Positions 5,263 to 13,535 of a stretch of 64,000 nucleotides of DNA are shown in pieces. Made by a program: the position numbers and the translations under genes. Origin of the DNA: an uncultured Chloroflexia bacterium (GTDB taxonomy: Bacteria > Chloroflexota > Limnocylindria > Limnocylindrales > CSP1-4); NCBI GenBank assembly GCA_963813335.1, contig CAWEYL010000004.1, forward strand, positions 64,001 through 128,000. The letters run 5' to 3'. The notes below the pieces were generated by a model, which had not been told where the DNA came from, made no database searches, and worked only from the letters and a program-made list of their open reading frames with translations. Within the stretch, counting starts at the first letter, position 1. The number at the start of each line of letters is the position of its first letter.

Positions 5263-6870
5263 GTGCCAGTCCGCCGCCGGTCGTCGCTCGGGGCGCCGAT
5301 CGCCCTCGTCGCGCTGCTCCTCGCCTCGGTCGCGGCTCCCGCGAGCGCGTCGGCGAGCGAGTTCCCGGCCGGCTATACCGGGTACCACAGCTACACCGAG
5401 GTCGCCGCCGACGTCGCGGCCACCGCCGCCGCCCACCCGGACATCGTCCAGCGGTTCTCGATCGGCAAGAGCTACCAGGGCCGCGAGATGTGGGCCGTCA
5501 AGGTCTCGGACAACGTCACGGTCGACGAACCCGAGCCCGAAGTCCTCTTCGACGGCGGCACCCACTCCGACGAGCACATGGGCGTCGAGATGACGCTCAG
5601 CATCTTCCACTGGCTCGTCAACGGGTACGGCACGGACCAGCGCATCACCGACATCGTGAACTCGCGCGAGATCTGGATCGTCTTCATCGTCAACCCCGAT
5701 GGTGTCGAGCACGACATCTCGGGCGGCAGGTTCCACCTCTGGCGCAAGAACCGCCAGCCGACGCCGGGCACCACGTCGATCGGGACGGACCTCAACCGGA
5801 ACTACGGCTACAAGTGGGGCGGCGGCGGCCGGACCAGCACGAACCCGCAGGCGATCACCTATCGCGGGCCGAGCGCCTTCTCGGCGCCCGAGACGCGGAA
5901 CATGCGCGACTTCCTGGCCAGCCGGGTCGTCAACGGTCGCCAGCAGATCCGCACCGCCATCACCTTCCACGAGGATGGCCGGCTGGTGATGTGGCCGTAC
6001 GGCTACACCTACGCGAACATCCCGGCCGACATGACCGCCCAGGACCACAACGCGCTCGTCTCGATCGGCAAGCACATGGCGAGCACGAACGGGTACAAGC
6101 CCGAGCAGGCCAGCGACCTGTACATCACCTCCGGCACGACCCGTGACTACGAGTACGGGATGTACCGGATCTTCTCGTACACGTTCGAGATGTCGATCGG
6201 CGCCTACATGGACGATTCGAAGATCGCGTCCGAGACCGGTCGCAACAAGGCCGCCGTCCTGTACCTGATGGAGCGGGCGTGGTGCCCGCTCTCGGTGCTG
6301 GGCACGGCCGTCCGCCAGGCACGGTGCGGCGCCTTCGACGAGGACTTCGAGGTCTCCCGCGGCTGGACGATCAACCCCGACGGCACCGATTCCGCACCCG
6401 CGTCGGGCCGGTTCGCCCGCGGCACGCCGGCGGCCACCACCTACAACGGCCCCAAGCAACTCCACAACGTCCCTTCCGGCGCACGGGCGCTGGTGACCGG
6501 GCTGGCGGCGGGCACCGGCCCGAGCGCGGGCGACCTCGACGGGCGGACGACCGCCCGCTCGCAGCCGATCGCGCTGCCGGCCGCCACGGGCCAGCGTCTG
6601 ACGTTCCGGTATGTGTTCGCCCACGACGCGCGCTCGTCCGCGGCCGACTCGCTCCAGGCGATCGTCGAGAAGGGCGACGGCTCGCAGGTCGTCGTCTTCA
6701 CGACGTCCGGCACGGCCGCCGATGTCGACGGCGCGTGGCATAGCGCCTCGATCCCGCTGGACGCGTTCGCCGGCCAGACCATCCGGCTCCGCTTCACAGC
6801 GGTCGACGGCGGCCCGTCGAACGTCCTCGAGGTCGAGCTCGACGATGTCCGGGTGACCCGCCCGGGCTGA
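5263..6870 (+). CDS. Secreted M14 zinc carboxypeptidase (carboxypeptidase T-like) with C-terminal beta-sandwich domain
   Basis: Signal peptide; HSDE zinc motif, NPDG, WRKNR, DLNRN, FSAPET, TFH and TFE motifs; CACCAT 6 nt before GTG 5263. Confidence 0.88.
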   Translation: MPVRRRSSLGAPIALVALLLASVAAPASASASEFPAGYTGYHSYTEVAADVAATAAAHPDIVQRFSIGKSYQGREMWAVKVSDNVTVDEPEPEVLFDGGTHSDEHMGVEMTLSIFHWLVNGYGTDQRITDIVNSREIWIVFIVNPDGVEHDISGGRFHLWRKNRQPTPGTTSIGTDLNRNYGYKWGGGGRTSTNPQAITYRGPSAFSAPETRNMRDFLASRVVNGRQQIRTAITFHEDGRLVMWPYGYTYANIPADMTAQDHNALVSIGKHMASTNGYKPEQASDLYITSGTTRDYEYGMYRIFSYTFEMSIGAYMDDSKIASETGRNKAAVLYLMERAWCPLSVLGTAVRQARCGAFDEDFEVSRGWTINPDGTDSAPASGRFARGTPAATTYNGPKQLHNVPSGARALVTGLAAGTGPSAGDLDGRTTARSQPIALPAATGQRLTFRYVFAHDARSSAADSLQAIVEKGDGSQVVVFTTSGTAADVDGAWHSASIPLDAFAGQTIRLRFTAVDGGPSNVLEVELDDVRVTRPG

Positions 6871-6904
6871 CCTCGTCCGTCACCGCCCTGTCACGCTCCG
6901 TGAA

Positions 6905-6910
6905 TAGACT
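6905..6910 (+). promoter_or_regulatory. -10 box of a probable leaderless msrA promoter
   Basis: TAGACT exactly 6 nt before ATG 6917 with no SD; the same geometry recurs at many genes in the window. Confidence 0.6.
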
Positions 6911-6916
6911 GCGGCC

Positions 6917-7600
6917 ATGAGGTTCTTCAGTACCAAGCCCGCGTCCATCCCCTCCCCCGCCGAGTCCCTCCCCGGGCGGTCGTCCCCGATCATGACCCCG
7001 GGCATCCACCGGGTCCTCGGCACGCCGCTCGCCGGCCCGTGGCCCGCCGGCACGAAGACCGCGGTCTTCGGCCTCGGCTGCTTCTGGGGCGACGAGAAGG
7101 ACTTCTGGCAGGTCCCCGGCGTGGTGACGACGGCCGTCGGGTATGCCGGCGGCCATACCCCCAATCCCACCTACGAGGAGGTGTGCTCGAGCCGCACGGG
7201 GCACGCCGAAGTGGTGCTCGTCGCGTACGACCCCGCGAAGGTGACGTACGAGCGGCTGCTCAAGACGTTCTGGGAGAGCCACGACCCCACCCAGGGCATG
7301 CGCCAGGGCAACGACATGGGCACCAGCTACCGCTCGATCATCCTCGTCGCCGACGAGGAGCAGCGGGCTGCCGCCGAGGCCTCGAAGGCCATGTTCCAGG
7401 AGCGCCTGTCGGCCAAGGGCTACGGCGCCATCACGACCGAGATCGCGGATCGGGCCGACTTCCCGTTCTACTACGCCGAGGACTACCACCAGCAGTACCT
7501 CGACAAGAAGGGAAATGAGAACGGGTATTGCCCGGACCACCGCACCGGGGTCAAGCTGCCGGACGACTTCGTGGTGACGCCGCTGCAGTACGTGGACTGA
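6917..7600 (+). CDS. msrA: Peptide-methionine (S)-S-oxide reductase
   Basis: GCFWG active site, [37 protein letters not shown] and C-terminal GYC. Confidence 0.96.
7523..7600 (+). repeat. msrA 3'-end repeat, copy 1 (the end of the intact gene)
   Basis: gggtattgcccggaccaccgcaccggggtcaagctgccggacgacttcgtggtgacgccgctgcagtacgtggactga = [25 protein letters not shown]. Confidence 0.9.
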
Positions 7601-7637
7601 GCCCGAAGCCAAGGCAGTGCCGCGGTAGGATGCAGGC

Positions 7638-8075
7638 GTGCGTGTCGTGGTTGCGGGTGCTCATGAGAAACGCCTCCGCGTACGCCCCGCAGCCGCTGTC
7701 CTGCTCCTCGCGGCTGGACTTGGTCTGGCCGGATGCTCGCCTTCCCAGTCCGACCTAATCATCTACAACCGGACGACCGTCCCAATCGCGGTCGTGACGT
7801 ACGACGACACGAACTACGTGGACGCATGTGCCTCTGCGCGATTCAGATGGACGCCTCGACTGACTCCGGTAAGCCCGGAGACCGTCCCATCGCCTCCACC
7901 TTCCGACTCGGTGCAGATTCTGCTCCCGGCGGACTACTTCCCGCCGCCGGATGGGCAGGGCTCCGCCGTCCGGTCGCTGGTCGTCACGAGTAGCGACGTC
8001 ATCACAGACTCGCCTCCGTTCGTGGAGCATCCTGACCCATCATTGCCACCATGCGAGGGTGTCCCCCCGGCATAG
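7638..8075 (+). CDS. Hypothetical lipoprotein (cargo gene 1)
   Basis: Lipobox LAGC; TAGGAT -10 box (7626-7631) 6 nt before GTG; visibly more A/T-ending codons than its neighbours. Confidence 0.7.
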   Translation: MRVVVAGAHEKRLRVRPAAAVLLLAAGLGLAGCSPSQSDLIIYNRTTVPIAVVTYDDTNYVDACASARFRWTPRLTPVSPETVPSPPPSDSVQILLPADYFPPPDGQGSAVRSLVVTSSDVITDSPPFVEHPDPSLPPCEGVPPA

Positions 8076-8102
8076 CGCCGGGCCAGCGGCAGTAGTCCCG
8101 CT

Positions 8103-8192
8103 GAGAATCCCCGGGGCTATTGCCCGAACCACTCGACCGGCGTGAAGCTGCCGGACGGCTTCGCGGTCACGCCGCTGCAGTACGTCGACTAG
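8103..8192 (+). repeat. msrA 3'-end repeat, copy 2 (orphan gene-end remnant)
   Basis: Translates as [29 protein letters not shown]; no start codon. Confidence 0.92.
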
Positions 8193-8302
8193 GCAGCTCA
8201 GGCCGCGGCATATCTAGGATCTCGTAACACGGTCGCAATGGCGGCGTCCTGGTTGGCAGGATGCGACGCAGAGTTCGCGAACAGGCGGTAGGAGGTCGAC
8301 CG

Positions 8303-8797
8303 ATGAGTGACCCGAGTGTCTATCGGGCCGACGGCGGCGCCGAAGAAACACCGCCTGTCGACGCTCGGGTACGATCGGGAACCAGCCGATCCATCACTCG
8401 TGGCTTCGCTTGTGGGCTGATCGGCGGGATCGCGATCGTCATGGCGATCGCCTGGGTGTCGAGCCTTCGCTTGAGCCTGAGCGTCGAGCAGGGCTTCATC
8501 GGGGCATGCATCTTGGCCACATGCGTCGGGCTGCTCACGGCTTGGGTTTCGCGCGGGTTCAGGGGCCTGGCGGGGCTCCTCATCGGAGGATACGTCGGAG
8601 GGCTCGTCGGAATCTGGATCACGAACTCCGCAAACGATGGCATTGGCACCGGAGACGTTGGTTTCTATGACTTCGCCGGGGCCATGGTAAGAGCAGCGAT
8701 CTGGTTCACTTGGCCTGTATTGACAACCGTCGGTTACGGCGTCGGCCGAGGTCTCTTCGACTCTCGGAAGACACCCGGCGGGGCTGCCGCGCCATGA
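8303..8797 (+). CDS. Hypothetical membrane protein, about 4 TM (cargo gene 2)
   Basis: GGAGG SD before ATG 8303; Gly-rich hydrophobic helices; atypical codon use. Confidence 0.7.
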   Translation: MSDPSVYRADGGAEETPPVDARVRSGTSRSITRGFACGLIGGIAIVMAIAWVSSLRLSLSVEQGFIGACILATCVGLLTAWVSRGFRGLAGLLIGGYVGGLVGIWITNSANDGIGTGDVGFYDFAGAMVRAAIWFTWPVLTTVGYGVGRGLFDSRKTPGGAAAP

Positions 8798-8904
8798 TCC
8801 GGCGACGTACTGTCCCGGGAACCTTCGATCGGAAACCCTAGGCGGCCGCCGAACCCCCCCACGCAGGACCGGTGTCTCATGGCGCGCCTCCGGCATTACG
8901 CTGA

Positions 8905-9004
8905 CCTGTCTCAGAACCCCCCGAGCCTATTGCCCGAACCACACTCGACCGGCGTGAAGCTGCCGGATGACTTCGTGGTCACGCCCTTCCAGTACGTAGA
9001 CTGA
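8905..9004 (+). repeat. msrA 3'-end repeat, copy 3 (decayed, with indels)
   Basis: cagaacccccc..tattgcccgaaccac[ac]tcgaccggcgtgaagctgccggatgacttcgtggtcacgcccttccagtacgtagactga = [27 protein letters not shown]. Confidence 0.9.
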
Positions 9005-9080
9005 CGCCAAGACCGCTCGGTCGTGAGCCGGTCGGCCCGTTGACCGACCGGCTCCACGACGGTCGGCAGGAGGACGCGAG

Positions 9081-9669
9081 ATGATCGACCCGATCGCGGA
9101 CATCATCGGCGACTACCGGGCTTTCGCCGCGCAGCAGCGCGACCGCCTGCTCGCCCGGGGCATCGATATCCGTCCGTACCTGCTCAGCCACCTCGCCGTC
9201 CGCGTGCCGGAGTGGGACCAGTACGTCCACCTGCGGACCCTGCTCGAACGCCACGCGACCGCGAACGCCGAGAACGTCTGGAACGGCCGGCCGATCTCGA
9301 AGATCCTCCTCGCCACGCCGCTCGAGGTCCTCGACGGGATGTCCGTCCCGCTCATCGAGCTTATCCCGCCCGTTCACCAGCGCGTCTACAAGATGGGCCT
9401 CGAGCATCTCGGGGTCGTCGTCGGTGAGGAGGTCGACGCCTTCTCCCGCGAGCATCGCGCGGCCCTGACCGGACAGCAGTTCCAGAGCGCCGGCTTCGAG
9501 CCGTACTACGTCCTCTTCGAGGACTTCACCCACGTGAAGTTCTACCGGATGCTCGCTCCATGATGGCTGCGTCCTCCAGGGGGCCACGTTCGACGGCTTC
9601 GTACACGTCGACGACTGGGTCCCGCAGCGCCTCGTGACGGCGACCGGCCCCAACCCGCTGCCCCGGTGA
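9081..9669 (+). CDS. YecM-like VOC family protein; one apparent frameshift near 9553
   Basis: SHLAVRV, NVWNGRPISKI, IELIPP, GLEHLGVVV and VKFY motifs; removing one base continues the frame as SLHDGCVLQGATFDGFVHVDDWVPQRL..* at 9669. Confidence 0.72.
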
Positions 9670-9706
9670 ACGAGCCTCCCGCCGTCGTACGCGGACTGAC
9701 CGAACA

Positions 9707-9776
9707 GCCCGCCGTCCCGAAGATGGCGGGCGTTCCCCGGAATCGAACGGCCCCGGATCGTCGATCCGGGGCCGTT
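9707..9776. terminator. Two GC-rich hairpins between convergent genes
   Basis: gcccgccgtc/gatggcgggc (9707-9731) and aacggccccggatc/gatccggggccgtt (9746-9776). Confidence 0.6.
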
Positions 9777-9798
9777 TCCGTTCGGGGAGGTTCGAGCC

Positions 9799-10311
9799 TC
9801 AGTACCCGTACCTGCCGCCCGAGCTCGGAGCTGGCGCCGGGGCAGAGGCGTCGGGCACGAGACCGGACCCACTGACCGTCGCGATCGAGAAGCCCTCGAC
9901 ACCGTTGCCGGTCGCGTCGCCGGCCTTCGTGTCGCCCTGCCAGTAGTAGAGCGGCAGGCCGCCGTACGTGACCTGGGTCGCACCATCCGGGCGGGTCAGG
10001 GTACCGAGCTGACCGGTGACTCCGGCCCGTGCCGTCGGCTGGCCCGTGGTTTCAAGGGGTGGCCAGGCGGTGGCGCAGCTGCCGGTGCAGCTCGACGAGG
10101 TCGCCGTATCCCCCGCGTGGGTGTACAGCGTCATCCCGCTCGGGCCGGTCAGGACCACGCCAAGGCTTGGTGAGCTGGCGGAACCGACGATGACCCCGGC
10201 GTTGCTCAAGGTGCCGCCACCGAGGGCGCTGGGACTGGCGGCATTCGACGTGCACGCGGCGACGGCGATGACGGCCGCGGCGAGAAGGGAAAGAAGGCGA
10301 GTGACAGACAT
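9799..10311 (-). CDS. Secreted lipoprotein with Yx(FWY)xxD repeats (COG4315-like)
   Basis: Lipobox VAAC; GMTLYTHAGD, CTGSCATAWPP and QVTYGGLPLYYWQGD. Confidence 0.85.
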   Translation of the reverse strand: MSVTRLLSLLAAAVIAVAACTSNAASPSALGGGTLSNAGVIVGSASSPSLGVVLTGPSGMTLYTHAGDTATSSSCTGSCATAWPPLETTGQPTARAGVTGQLGTLTRPDGATQVTYGGLPLYYWQGDTKAGDATGNGVEGFSIATVSGSGLVPDASAPAPAPSSGGRYGY

Positions 10312-10404
10312 TCGCGAAACTCCGAGATAGGCGAGTGAGCCGACCGTGGCTCACATACTCGAAGTACGCGGCATGCCAGGGCAGTGGTTTTGGGCGATCG
10401 CGTG

Positions 10405-10607
10405 GCCGAGTATCTGACCGACGGACTGGCTTGCATCGTCGAGGTGGAGCATCGCGAAGCGAAGGTCGGCGGGAGTGGGGACCTTTGCCGATCGACTTGC
10501 GCGTGACGACCGTCCTTCGACCGGAGGACGGGACCTGGAAGATCGCTCACCGCCACGCCGATCCGATCACGTCGGCTCGTTCGGCGGCTTCGGTCATCGA
10601 GCGATAG
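10405..10607 (+). pseudogene. 3' fragment of a SnoaL/NTF2-like (DUF4440-type) gene
   Basis: Two frames join as AEYLTDGLACIVEVEHREAKVGG..PIDLRVTTVLRPEDGTWKIAHRHADP; the N-terminal half is missing. Confidence 0.65.
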
Positions 10608-10619
10608 CTTCGACGTCAC

Positions 10620-11645
10620 TCACGGCACGAGCACGGCCCGACCGCGCACCGTCCGCGCGTGGAGCCTCTCGTACGCCCTCGGACCGTCTTCGAGGCTGAA
10701 CTGCTCCGTCTCGACGGTGATGGCGCCGGACCGCGCGAGGTCGAGCACCTCGTACAGCTCCGGGCGGGTCCCCCAGACGGGGCGGCGGACGGTGATCCCA
10801 CTTGGAAGCGTGTCGGCGCCGACCGGGATCGCGCCCGGGCCGAGGCCGACCATGGCGATGTCGGACCATCGGCCGACCAGCTTCGCCGCCAGCTCGGCGG
10901 CCTCTTGCAGTCCCACGAAGTTGAAGACCGCTTCAACGCCTCGGCCACCGGTGAGGTCGCGCACGGCCTGGATCGATGAGGTGTCGGCGTAGAACGCGGC
11001 GTGAGCGCCGACCTCGCGAGCGAAGGCGAGCTTGTCCTCGCTGATGTCGAGCGCGACGATCTGCGCTGGCGAGAGTGCCCTGAGGATCTGGATCGCGAGG
11101 TGGCCTAGACCGCCCACGCCGATGACGACCGCCGTCGAGCCCGGGACGAGCTTGGGAAGCGATGGCTTGATCGCGTGGTAGGGCGTGAGCCCGGCGTCAG
11201 TGAGCGGGACGGACCGGACCGGGTCGAGGTTTCCGAGCGGAACGAGATGCCGCGCGCTTGGCACGAGCAGGTAGTCGGCCATGAACCCGGGAGCATCGAT
11301 GCCGGGCCACGGGGAGCCTTCGCCGATGCAGTAGTTTTCGGCGCCTGCGGCGCATGCGCGACAGGAGCCACAGCCCCAGGCGCCATAGATCGCGACTGCG
11401 TCGCCTTCCCTGATGCCGGTGACCGCACTGCCGAGTCGCTCCACGATGCCAGCGCCTTCGTGTCCGAGCGTCAACGGCAACGGGGTCGCGAACTCCTCGG
11501 GCGCGAGGCTCATGAAGTACTCGTCCGAGTGGCAGACGCCCGCCGCAGTCGTCTTGATCAGGACCTCACCGGGTCCCGGCTCCGGGATCGGTACCTCGCG
11601 GATCTCTGGAGGACGTCCGAACGCCGTGTACTGCAGCGCCCGCAT
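10620..11645 (-). CDS. Zn-dependent NAD(P) alcohol dehydrogenase
   Basis: GVCHSD, GHEGAG, CGSCRACAAGAENYC, DAGLTPYH and GVGGLG motifs. Confidence 0.93.
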   Translation of the reverse strand: MRALQYTAFGRPPEIREVPIPEPGPGEVLIKTTAAGVCHSDEYFMSLAPEEFATPLPLTLGHEGAGIVERLGSAVTGIREGDAVAIYGAWGCGSCRACAAGAENYCIGEGSPWPGIDAPGFMADYLLVPSARHLVPLGNLDPVRSVPLTDAGLTPYHAIKPSLPKLVPGSTAVVIGVGGLGHLAIQILRALSPAQIVALDISEDKLAFAREVGAHAAFYADTSSIQAVRDLTGGRGVEAVFNFVGLQEAAELAAKLVGRWSDIAMVGLGPGAIPVGADTLPSGITVRRPVWGTRPELYEVLDLARSGAITVETEQFSLEDGPRAYERLHARTVRGRAVLVP

Positions 11646-11801
11646 CTGTCTTCTCCTCTCTCGCGACCGATCCGAGAGTACACGCCTCGATCGGTCAGAT
11701 ACTCGTCACCCGGTCACGTGCGGATCCGGGCGTTGCCACCCGCGACGCCCAGGTGGCATCCTCCCGGATGGGGGAACCGGCTCGACGGCTGAGGGCTGGC
11801 G

Positions 11802-12464
11802 ATGGATCGATCCGATCCGGCATATCGAGGGCAGGCCGACTACAGCCCGCTCTTGCTCAAGCTCTACGATCCGATCGTCATCGGTGTCGTCTCCCGGCTG
11901 GTATGGAGGTTTCCGCCCGATCGGCTGCCGGATGAGTACCAGGCCCGGATCCGGGATCGCCACCTCGACGTCGGTCCCGGCACGGGGTACCTGATCGACC
12001 ACTCGGGGATCCCTGACGGCCGCCACGTCACCATCGTCGACCCGAACCCGAACGTGCTCCGGCACGCGACGAAGCGACTCCGCCGGCTCGACGTCACAGC
12101 CGTCGAGGCGGACGTCCTGAAGCCACTGCCTGTGGACGGCCCCTTCGACTCGGCGGCCCTCTGCCTCGTCATCCACTGCCTGCCCGGTCCCCTGGCCCGG
12201 AAGGCCACTGCGATCGCCAATATCGCGGCGGTCCTCGCGCCGGACGGCGTCCTCTTCGGTGCATCCGTGCTCGGGCGGTCCGGGCGGCACACCTGGCTCG
12301 GTCGCCGGGTCCTCGCCGCGTTCAACCGGCGCGGCGCCTTCGACAACCTCGATGACAGCGCGGAAGGTCTCCGCGAGATCCTCGCAGCCTCCTTCGAGCG
12401 CGTGGAGATGGAGACGTTCAGGTCAGTCGTCGTCTTCGCCGCGTCGAGACCGCGGGCTGGGTAG
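11802..12464 (+). CDS. Class I SAM-dependent methyltransferase
   Basis: HLDVGPGTG motif I, FDSAAL, IHCLPGP and LAPDGVLFG. Confidence 0.85.
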   Translation: MDRSDPAYRGQADYSPLLLKLYDPIVIGVVSRLVWRFPPDRLPDEYQARIRDRHLDVGPGTGYLIDHSGIPDGRHVTIVDPNPNVLRHATKRLRRLDVTAVEADVLKPLPVDGPFDSAALCLVIHCLPGPLARKATAIANIAAVLAPDGVLFGASVLGRSGRHTWLGRRVLAAFNRRGAFDNLDDSAEGLREILAASFERVEMETFRSVVVFAASRPRAG

Positions 12465-12565
12465 CCTGTGGGTCGTCACGGCGGGCAGGACGTCGACCTC
12501 GGCGAGGCTGACAGGCTCGTGACTTCAGCGACGGGGCCCGCTACGCTTGCCTCGGAGGTGCCACG

Positions 12566-12814
12566 ATGACGGTCCAACGGGCCTTGGAAGAGGCCATGCA
12601 CCATGAGACCTCGGCCGGCGTGATGGACGCGCTCGTCCAACAGGGCGTGTGGATGGCCGACGAGGACACGATGACGGCGGCGATCCACAACGTGTACTGC
12701 GGCATCATGGCCGACCACGAGCACCCGAACGAGAAGGATCGCGATCAGGCCCGACAGTTGATCGCCGCCATCGGGAAGTCGATGGGGACCGGCGCCGGGG
12801 CAGCGAGCGACTGA
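12566..12814 (+). CDS. Small hypothetical protein with a possible His/Cys metal site
   Basis: GGAGG SD, upstream TACGCT box, and HNVYCG..DHEHP motif. Confidence 0.65.
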   Translation: MTVQRALEEAMHHETSAGVMDALVQQGVWMADEDTMTAAIHNVYCGIMADHEHPNEKDRDQARQLIAAIGKSMGTGAGAASD

Positions 12815-12848
12815 CGCCGGCGACGGTCCGCCGCTCGTGCCGCCGCGG

Positions 12849-13535
12849 TCATCCGGCGGAGGCGGCGTCCGTCAGGTCCCGATCCTGCATCTCCCACGCG
12901 TGGTCGAGCGCGTGGTACGCCGTGTGGCGAAGCAGGTACGGGATCGTCCAGTTGCCGAGCGGCTTGCCGTCGGCATACCAGGCGCGCATCGCATCGACGT
13001 AGCGGTCGCGGTGATGGGCAAGGCCGCCCGGCGTCCGCAGGTCCTCCAGCTCGGACGGCATCTTCACGCGCGCCGAGAAGTCTCCGCCCTCGACCCCCAG
13101 CACATGCTGGACGATCCGGTCGCGGGAGCGGCCACCGCCGCGGACGCCCAGGCGCAGCTCCGCCGAGACGCGCGCGGCCGTCTCGTCGAACTCGGCCCAC
13201 GCCGCGCGCAGCAGGCGCACCTGGCGGTCGAAGGTCGGCGCATCGAACGGCTCGCGGTCGAGCGGTGATGGCGCGAACGAGATGCCCCAGAAGTCGGTCG
13301 AGCCGACTCCCGGGTAGCGGCCGATGATGTCGGGGGCGGTCTGCGTCGCGAGCTCCGCGCCCAGCCGGGCGCGCTTCGCGACGGGGAGGTAGCGAGGCAC
13401 GTAGCGGACGACCTTCTCGACCGCCTCGTCCTCCGTCTTGCCACCCCGTTCGAGACCCGGCCAGTCCGCAGCGACGGCGACCCAACGCTTCCCTCTCGTG
13501 GGCTGTTCGACGAGGACGCGAAGCTGCGACGTCAC
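12849..13535 (-). CDS. Hypothetical protein: HicB-like N-terminus plus DinB-like helical C-terminus
   Basis: GTG 13535 with TACGAT 6 nt upstream; WVAVAADWPGLERGGKTEDEA; C-terminal RHTAYHALDHAWEMQD. Confidence 0.7.
   Translation of the reverse strand: MTSQLRVLVEQPTRGKRWVAVAADWPGLERGGKTEDEAVEKVVRYVPRYLPVAKRARLGAELATQTAPDIIGRYPGVGSTDFWGISFAPSPLDREPFDAPTFDRQVRLLRAAWAEFDETAARVSAELRLGVRGGGRSRDRIVQHVLGVEGGDFSARVKMPSELEDLRTPGGLAHHRDRYVDAMRAWYADGKPLGNWTIPYLLRHTAYHALDHAWEMQDRDLTDAASAG

Follow-up and report, generated by a model that had tools for sequence, protein, structure and literature searches.

The msrA locus

The window analyzed here, a 64,000-nucleotide stretch (positions 64,001 to 128,000 of contig CAWEYL010000004.1, assembly GCA_963813335.1) from an uncultured Chloroflexia bacterium, carries the gene msrA, encoding peptide methionine sulfoxide reductase A. 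Downstream of msrA, displaced copies of the end of this gene alternate with single genes. The window's assembly (G000 in what follows) comprises 2.54 Mb in 7 contigs and is 81% complete. We describe this arrangement, its counterparts in related genomes, and the evidence that it is probably an array of mobile gene cassettes that use the end of msrA as their attachment site.

Alignments of shared cargo genes in different contexts delimited the repeating unit, or cassette, as an msrA-like tail with its stop codon, followed by cargo and then by a non-coding stretch that we call the P-arm. The features of the locus are as follows, where X1 and X2 denote soil-metagenome contigs that were compared with the window.

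6917-7600, + strand: msrA, intact, 227 aa; Pfam PF01625 (PMSR), E 4.9e-59
7506-7600, + strand: working msrA tail, the last 31 codons; GNENG..PDHRTG type, atypical
7506-7509, + strand: AGAA junction core in msrA (codons D-K), the left end of cassette 1; joint from 7505 to 8104 with 4 ambiguous letters (X1, X2)
7506-8103, + strand: cassette 1, 598 nt; linker and tail (7506-7600), lipoprotein-like gene and type B P-arm
7638-8075, + strand: lipoprotein-like gene of cassette 1, 145 aa, lipobox LAGC, no Pfam family
~8083-8103, + strand: type B P-arm of cassette 1, ending ..GGCAGTAGTCCCGCTG
8104-8912, + strand: cassette 2; tail copy 2, membrane-protein gene and type A P-arm
8104-8192, + strand: displaced tail copy 2, AGAA and tail, intact frame, reading NPRGYCPNHSTG
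8303-8797, + strand: membrane-protein gene of cassette 2, 164 aa, multi-pass, no Pfam family, conserved in genome G139
~8888-8912, + strand: type A P-arm of cassette 2, CGGCATTACGCTGACCTGTCTC
8913-9004, + strand: displaced tail copy 3, AGAA and tail, NPPS.YCPNHSTG, put out of frame by a 2-nt insertion
9081-9563 (open reading frame; region to ~9668), + strand: YecM-like gene, 160 aa; Pfam PF06185, E 1.6e-16

In the MsrA of the window the PF01625 match covers residues 48-205, the GCFWG active site and GYCP are present in the translation, and the protein shares 72-91% amino acid identity with MsrA of the genus. A preliminary description of this stretch had claimed that the msrA end recurs twice in the same orientation, with one gene in each interval. 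A repeat search of the window bore this out, returning a three-copy direct-repeat family (7523-7598; 8115-8190, 86% identical to the first; and 8927-9002) with all copies on the + strand, and the intervals encode the 145-aa lipoprotein-like and the 164-aa membrane protein. Tail copies 2 and 3 are 87% alike. When the whole 2.54-Mb assembly was searched with a site profile only three sites were found (E 1e-23 to 3e-33), the next best match having an E value of 0.18.

The translations likewise agree with the earlier statement that copies 2 and 3 share an NP..YCPNHSTG form from which the working tail differs: both copies carry the tail form that is usual in the genus, NPRGYCPNHSTG, whereas the working tail does not. 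Copy 3 is indeed the more decayed, as had been described, its 2-nt insertion contrasting with the intact copy 2, and it is the oldest recognizable site of the window array. The claim that the remnants start just after HQQYL did not hold. The sharp left boundary is AGAA, after D-K (7506-9, 8104-7 and 8913-6), and similarity extends ~25 nt to the left of the boundary given before, into a diverged, non-coding, QQYLDK-like stretch that precedes each displaced tail (8083-8107 and 8888-8916).

Inside msrA itself a 13-nt direct repeat, GCAGTAC[C/G]TCGAC, lies at QQYLD and at LQYVD, and this could have seeded the first duplication. The C-terminal Cys of MsrA we take to be its recycling Cys, as in E. 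coli MsrA. A search of window positions 6500-13500 for known RNA families gave just one match, at chance level.

Anatomy of the cassettes

The tail is ~85 nt long and encodes the last 27-31 residues of MsrA, in the order linker, GYCPNH..LQYVD and stop. Cargo starts a few bases past the tail stop and is made up of accessory genes in either orientation, mostly a single one and sometimes two to four. The P-arm is ~27 nt long, is non-coding, and in both of its types ends in TGAGAA where msrA has CAAGAA. Its consensus is GGCA[A/G]TACGCTGACCTGTCTGAGAA, with a shorter variant GGCAGTAGTCTCGCTGAGAA. The commoner type has an insertion of ~6 nt relative to msrA (..TACGCTGACCTGTCTGAGAA versus ..TACCTCGAC-AAGAA), and the P-arm with this insertion is kept across genera although it is non-coding. 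The P-arm is a diverged relative of the QQYLDK region of msrA.

The cargo enzymes include an ABM monooxygenase, glyoxalase/VOC, SnoaL-like, GNAT and cupin proteins, Zn-dehydrogenases, an esterase, an alpha/beta-hydrolase and a methyltransferase. Further cargo comprises MarR, adenylate cyclase, nucleoside deoxyribosyltransferase, adenosine deaminase, YecM, small membrane proteins and proteins of no family. No recombinase domain was found in the 22 cargo proteins that were scanned.

Intact frames ending in a stop were seen in 21 of 30 full-length displaced tails, and mismatches to the consensus amounted to 7.6, 7.6 and 18.7% at the first, second and third codon positions. This third-position bias, together with the intact frames, fits tails that have completed msrA in the past or could do so again. 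Assembly errors may account for some of the nine broken tails.

Recurrence across the genus and family

All of the genomes compared are metagenome-assembled genomes (MAGs) of 55-95% completeness. The site was matched in 112 of the 131 species-level genomes of the genus. At least two matches, and up to six, were counted by hand from the table in 46 of the 131, which is an upper bound for the number of arrays, as the matches of G109 and G077 are on two contigs and the second match of G007 and G014 lies outside the fetched locus.

We examined 38 loci, 18 of them chosen only for having msrA and 20 for having several matches, the second batch thus being biased. The site profile gave 93 matches in these loci, all on the msrA strand, comprising the 38 working tails and 55 others, and the end-to-end spacing of cargo-bearing units was 0.43-2.1 kb. 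At least one remnant was present in 9/18 loci of the unbiased batch. Downstream of msrA the relatives carry single genes that vary between genomes, with a remnant of the msrA end after each, and these remnants have a common left boundary, both of which accord with the stacking proposed in the preliminary description. Upstream of msrA just three stable gene contexts occur (20, 13 and 5 loci) while the downstream side is hypervariable, and the variability is therefore polar.

The architecture is family-wide. In an order-level search, for which only two candidates were scored per genome, double site matches occurred in many other genera of the family, and the site was matched in 0/42 genomes of the sister family. 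None of the conclusions draws on G325 or G309, two genomes of this search. At seven loci from seven other genera msrA (60-72% amino acid identity at the protein level) is followed at once by one to three further sites, and an eighth other-genus locus (G456) has four full sites and one partial match in a fetched stretch without msrA. A strict P-arm pattern gave four matches in species-representative genomes.

Some sites depart from the usual form. Two sites stand back to back in G116 (L058:8903-9130) and in G132 (L060:6492-6740), 105-108 nt end to end and with no cargo; these are "empty" cassettes of tail and P-arm only. A tail-less P-arm, matching profile positions 6-66 only, lies behind a quinone-oxidoreductase (QOR) unit in G015 (L054) and G113 (L073), and between two cassettes of G020 only the last ~35 nt of a site remain. 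Truncation of sites is therefore possible. G109 has two msrA loci, on contigs C1 (16.8 kb) and C4, one with a remnant and one without, which may represent two strains binned together.

Cassette shuffling, horizontal transfer and a strain variant

An all-against-all comparison showed that cassette families occupy differing array positions and occur in differing orders. The yecM unit is the first cassette of G017 and the second of G139, and stands behind the array in G000 and G022, whilst the QOR unit may be cassette 1, 2 or 3 or may directly follow msrA. The order is F1-QOR-ABM in G100 and F1-ABM-QOR in G020 (F1 being a further cassette family). Window cassette 2 and the first cassette of G139 match at 87% identity over 807 nt, and yecM follows both alike; the window therefore has one extra unit inserted beside msrA.

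Cassettes have also been exchanged horizontally, as between some genome pairs cassette identity is far above that of the msrA body: 97 versus 85% for the F1 cassette (G086/G097 against G100), 94.4 versus 80.6% for the QOR cassette (G093 against G100), and 93.3 versus 84.8% and 92 versus 82% in two more pairs. The converse is also present (cassette 81%, msrA body 91%).

Cassette 1 is precisely present or absent. Soil-metagenome contigs of both X1 and X2 contain a joint from 7505 to 8104 that skips 598 nt, with only AGAA shared between its two sides, and the skipped stretch is exactly the span of cassette 1. Beyond the joint, the X1 contig matches cassette 2 for 313 nt (1 mismatch, 1 gap), and cassette 1 is present on a second X1 contig. 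Strains that are near-identical but differ in having or lacking cassette 1 therefore coexist. In the variant lacking cassette 1, msrA ends in copy 2; since this strain uses copy 2 as its msrA tail, the atypical GNENG..PDHRTG tail now in use in the window arrived with cassette 1. The variant supports the earlier proposal that incoming DNA brought a new 3' end and one gene, restored msrA, displaced the old end and so swapped the tail. The cargo of cassette 1 had no match in 129 of the 130 other genomes of the genus, and the sole match, 103 nt at 74% in G121, lies elsewhere in that genome.

Two further short-read contigs confirm the arrangement: X1 record 3 runs from the msrA tail through cassette 1 to copy 2 (628 nt, 3 mismatches) and X2 record 15 from copy 2 into cassette 2 (597 nt). 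X1 and X2 come from one study that may include the window's own sample, and so confirm the structure rather than giving independent evidence from another habitat; contigs, not raw reads, were compared, and window stretches without contig cover (e.g. 8840-9053) are uninformative. The array could in principle be an assembly artefact, in which the msrA ends of different strains were merged or joined into chimeras, as all genomes are MAGs and several have frameshifts typical of long-read assemblies. Yet the same architecture is found in dozens of independent assemblies, the window junctions are bridged by short-read contigs and the intervals hold unique genes, which makes this explanation vanishingly improbable. 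The chimeric assembly that the preliminary description had considered is ruled out by the structure standing in separate short-read contigs.

At window position 8253, in the spacer before the cassette-2 gene, the short-read contigs of X1 and X2 are both one base shorter, and this is likely to be a single-base assembly error.

Position of the junctions

The junctions cluster at AGAA. F1 cassettes are 98-99% identical over their last 300 nt and the P-arm, become 10-13% different right past TGAGAA, and are unrelated past the stop. Among 11 pairs of sites that have the upstream unit in common and differ in the downstream one, the two halves of the P-arm had identities of 0.98 and 0.88. Identity fell to 0.75 in the linker and stood at 0.80-0.88 in the tail, the latter equalling the background of 0.82-0.87. 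The identity step falls at profile positions 53/54, and the extended conserved blocks of the tail are free of junctions. As the junctions stand where the partners share 4 bases and the flanks are ~65% alike, they speak for site-specific rather than plain homologous recombination, as does the conserved non-coding P-arm.

A rival explanation is RecA-dependent homologous recombination between repeated msrA ends of ~85-110 nt, acting by DNA uptake or looping-out and with no site-specific enzyme. The tails do have long near-identical stretches in common, no dedicated recombinase was found, and the linkage between a tail and what lies downstream of it is partial, as expected from crossover or conversion within tails. 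Homologous crossovers should fall in the conserved tail, however, and the junctions (7505 to 8104, those of the F1 cassettes, and positions 53/54) are at the left edge of homology, where P-arm and msrA are ~65% alike and only AGAA is shared; they therefore count against it. The conservation across genera of a non-coding insertion in the P-arm also speaks against homologous recombination, which we consider unlikely.

Search for a recombinase

There is no tyrosine recombinase gene on the window's contig, in keeping with the earlier statement that the window holds no integrase. PF00589 matches were examined in five genomes (G000, G142, G139, G116 and G100). They comprised a XerC/XerD-like pair, its members separated by ~45 kb, and sporadic extras, and every match was distant from msrA or on a different contig. 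XerC/D-like proteins were the only site-specific recombinases common to all five.

The preliminary description had envisaged a co-occurring recombinase, and none emerged that was linked to the arrays. A third Xer-like tyrosine recombinase of G000 (C6:27615-28568; L080:1613-2569, - strand; 318 aa) scores below all curated cut-offs. It is present in only 25/131 genomes of the genus, is 95% identical in G112, and is missing from the genomes with the richest arrays, G142, G139 and G100. It was rejected as a helper on these grounds, and probably belongs to an unrelated mobile element. A diversity-generating retroelement, suggested by a repeat at the 3' end of a gene, was dropped on inspection by eye, as all base types differ and the copies flank cargo; no reverse-transcriptase search was made.

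Searching viral contigs for a phage-borne attP with two site patterns gave 0 matches. This bears on the idea that the units are scars of integrase-bearing islands or prophages which integrated in tandem at the 3' end of msrA and then underwent deletion, so that a single gene and an attR remained of each. Site-specific integration at gene 3' ends is known to produce tandem accretion together with copies of the gene end (PMC2297512, PMC8409611, PMC5704250). In the 38 loci, however, 55 non-working sites occur and no integrase was found in any interval examined, the units are just 0.43-2.1 kb, the same small units are found whole in several genomes and at several array positions, and the polymorphic entity is the 598-nt unit itself. 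An origin as island scars is accordingly quite improbable.

A classical integron with its intI elsewhere or unassembled, comparable to a cluster of attC sites lacking integron-integrases (CALIN), would explain the single-gene cassettes, the cargo of chromosomal-integron types and the growth at the proximal end. Against the integron-integrase model, however, the three G000 tyrosine recombinases scored 47.7, 115.3 and 108 bits, where the cut-off is 265. Folding four sites as DNA on both strands gave no hairpin excess (z -1.44 to +0.19) and no common attC-like hairpin, and an inverted repeat noticed by eye, GCAGTA..TACTGC, showed no covariation across sites. The sites are conserved in sequence, are not attC-like and are coding gene ends, and cargo lies on both strands. 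Taken together, a classical integron is very hard to reconcile with these results and has little probability.

A model for cassette capture at msrA

We interpret the locus as a chromosomal, integron-like array of mobile gene cassettes that attach at the protein-coding 3' end of msrA by site-specific recombination (rough probability 0.75). A free cassette, presumably circular, would recombine at AGAA, its junction between P-arm and tail crossing with msrA between codons D-K and N. The incoming tail would complete msrA, with the cargo next, and the cassette's P-arm and the old tail would be displaced downstream. Repeated insertion would stack cassettes with the newest beside msrA, and excision would return a stored tail to use; such reuse of stored tails would explain why most displaced tails are translatable. 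Distal sites would decay with time and their genes become fixed. Three parts of this model are inferred: that the intermediate is circular, that insertion occurs mostly at the site nearest msrA, and that the work is done in trans by a site-specific recombinase.

Several observations weigh against this interpretation. No recombinase is linked to any array in the five genomes with PF00589 matches, and neither a serine recombinase (resolvase-type matches in 1/5 genomes) nor a Y1 transposase (0/5) could be retained as a helper; as all genomes are MAGs, the recombinase may merely be unassembled. No circular form was seen in the contigs that were compared. The variant without cassette 1 may be an ancestor that never received the insertion rather than a product of excision. 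The linker just to the right of AGAA varies in sequence and length, which is unusual for a classical recombinase core. Linkage between tail and downstream unit is only partial (0.84, 0.88, 0.86 and 0.93 versus a background of 0.84, 0.87, 0.83 and 0.82 in four blocks, from 10 pairs that are few, related and not independent), so that one has to suppose that tails were exchanged afterwards. In working tails the conservation of synonymous sites exceeds that in the gene body only slightly (0.77 versus ~1.0-1.3 bits, with one body block at 0.82). Lastly, site decay is weakly related to array position (rho -0.15, p 0.28); the last site of an array has a median score of 75 bits versus 102 for the others.

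More tentatively, and at somewhat less than even odds, this would be a previously undescribed system of cassette capture, common to a whole family of Chloroflexota from soil, in which the last ~30 codons of a housekeeping gene serve as both docking site and cassette site, with precise recombination at a 4-nt core. Recombination would then be due to a recombinase of a new kind or to host enzymes (e.g. XerC/D) acting on a non-dif site, giving a functional integron independent of IntI and attC that stores alternative MsrA C-termini as a by-product. The titles and opening lines of abstracts covered by our literature search contain no description of msrA as an attachment site or of such arrays in Chloroflexota. 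The distinctive traits are the single-gene size of the units, the use of a coding gene end as docking and cassette site, the family-wide cassette pool and the lack of a linked recombinase.

The msrA arrays reach an integron-like outcome in a different form: with up to five single-gene cassettes per array, they are shared and occur in new orders among at least eight genera of bacteria that are abundant in soil, the attachment site is the end of a protein-coding gene, and no integron machinery was found. Should an enzyme carry out the recombination, a new or re-purposed recombinase with a compact, defined target would be implied, which could be useful in genome engineering; otherwise the arrays would be a clear example from nature of cassettes that maintain themselves through a duplicated gene end. 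Hypervariable "islets" beside core genes in uncultured phyla can thus be organized gene-capture devices, and the signature of P-arm and tail could be used to fish cassettes from metagenomes.

Downstream genes and other repeats

Behind tail copy 3 the window has the YecM-like gene and, beyond it, the following features.

9799-12814, both strands: probable fossil part of the array; genes found in or right behind arrays elsewhere
9799-10311, - strand: lipoprotein-like gene, 170 aa; the region matches the start of the G142 post-array region at the nucleotide level
10620-11645, - strand: Zn-alcohol dehydrogenase; translation resembles G116_c3 and G142_c4 by eye
11802-12464, + strand: methyltransferase; by eye like G129_c2, and directly after msrA in G024
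12566-12814, + strand: 82-aa gene; translation resembles G116_c2 by eye

Relatives of the YecM-like protein have 198-205 aa, and their last ~25 residues (..VDDWVPQRLVTATGP.PLPR) are encoded in the window in another frame, read by eye, up to ~9668; the short open reading frame ending at 9563 is the result of a frameshift or assembly error. A P-arm-like stretch follows the gene at ~9676-9700. The fossil array probably extends to ~12.8 kb in the window, as the downstream genes match cassettes or post-array regions of other genomes; the site profile found no decayed sites in this part of G000 (9799-12814). The preliminary description is refined in that every unit carries a P-arm, the YecM-like gene and the next four genes belong to cassette families, and the phenomenon is family-wide.

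A 232-aa open frame without a family runs antisense over the cassette-2 gene (window 8198-8896, - strand), which we take to be a by-product of high G+C content.

The preliminary description also raised the possibility of other genes with repeated 3' ends, and a genome scan found one such case in G000, which is not an array and was not found in relatives. At C1:739949-740383 (L085:2450-2884), outside the window, the last ~56 nt of a 398-aa gene and 26 nt past its stop recur 353 nt downstream at 94% identity, flanking ~270 nt of DNA of lower G+C content and without a clear gene. The 398-aa gene is putatively glycoside-hydrolase-3/NagZ-like, named from its KHFPGIG motif. No relative in the genus has two nearby copies of this gene end; G064 and G119 each gave two weak partial matches on different contigs.

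Comparison with known systems

Integrons are the textbook route by which bacteria collect and reshuffle single genes; a single integrase family and hairpin sites define them. Like the msrA arrays, sedentary chromosomal integrons hold mostly single-gene cassettes, each with its own site, that are shuffled and exchanged between species; the newest cassettes lie beside the fixed site, and the cargo consists of small accessory enzymes and proteins of unknown function. Unlike integrons, the msrA arrays have no intI adjacent or near, their sites are gene ends of conserved sequence rather than attC hairpins defined by structure, each insertion rewrites the C-terminus of a housekeeping enzyme, and cargo may lie on either strand. 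Of the traits by which an integron is recognized, we thus found shuffled single-gene cassettes, and neither an adjacent intI nor attC. The earlier likening of the locus to integrons and tandem islands holds to the same extent, for the shuffled single-gene cassettes and the gene-end direct repeats; it fails for intI, attC and an integrase of the array's own or from a helper.

Tandem integrative elements at a gene 3' end, such as Salmonella genomic island 1 (SGI1) at trmE, also supply a replacement 3' end, leave a displaced direct repeat and form arrays, and elements of the cis-mobilizable (CIME) type resemble the msrA units in having no integrase of their own. The ssrA-specific islands of Dehalococcoides are a further example of such tandem accretion. 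By the traits of genomic islands, integrative mobilizable elements and CIMEs, the msrA units have the gene-end direct repeats and the restored gene, with neither an own nor a helper integrase found. They differ from islands of 5-100 kb in their size of 0.43-2.1 kb, in holding one gene with no helper integrase identified, and in drawing on a family-wide cassette pool.

Xer-dependent elements (integrative mobile elements exploiting Xer, IMEX, and the pdif modules of Acinetobacter plasmids) are small and rely on the XerC/D of the host, and their sites are 28-bp look-alikes of dif. They are similar to the msrA cassettes in lacking a recombinase of their own, and XerC/D-like genes are common to the five genomes checked. 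Unlike these modules, the msrA site has by eye no dif-like ATAA-N6-TTAT core, the own dif of these genomes not having been determined. Tycheposons of Prochlorococcus are several kb in length, have their own tyrosine recombinase and mostly target tRNA genes; as with the msrA cassettes, their cargo elements accumulate in tandem at conserved gene ends and so give rise to hypervariable islands.

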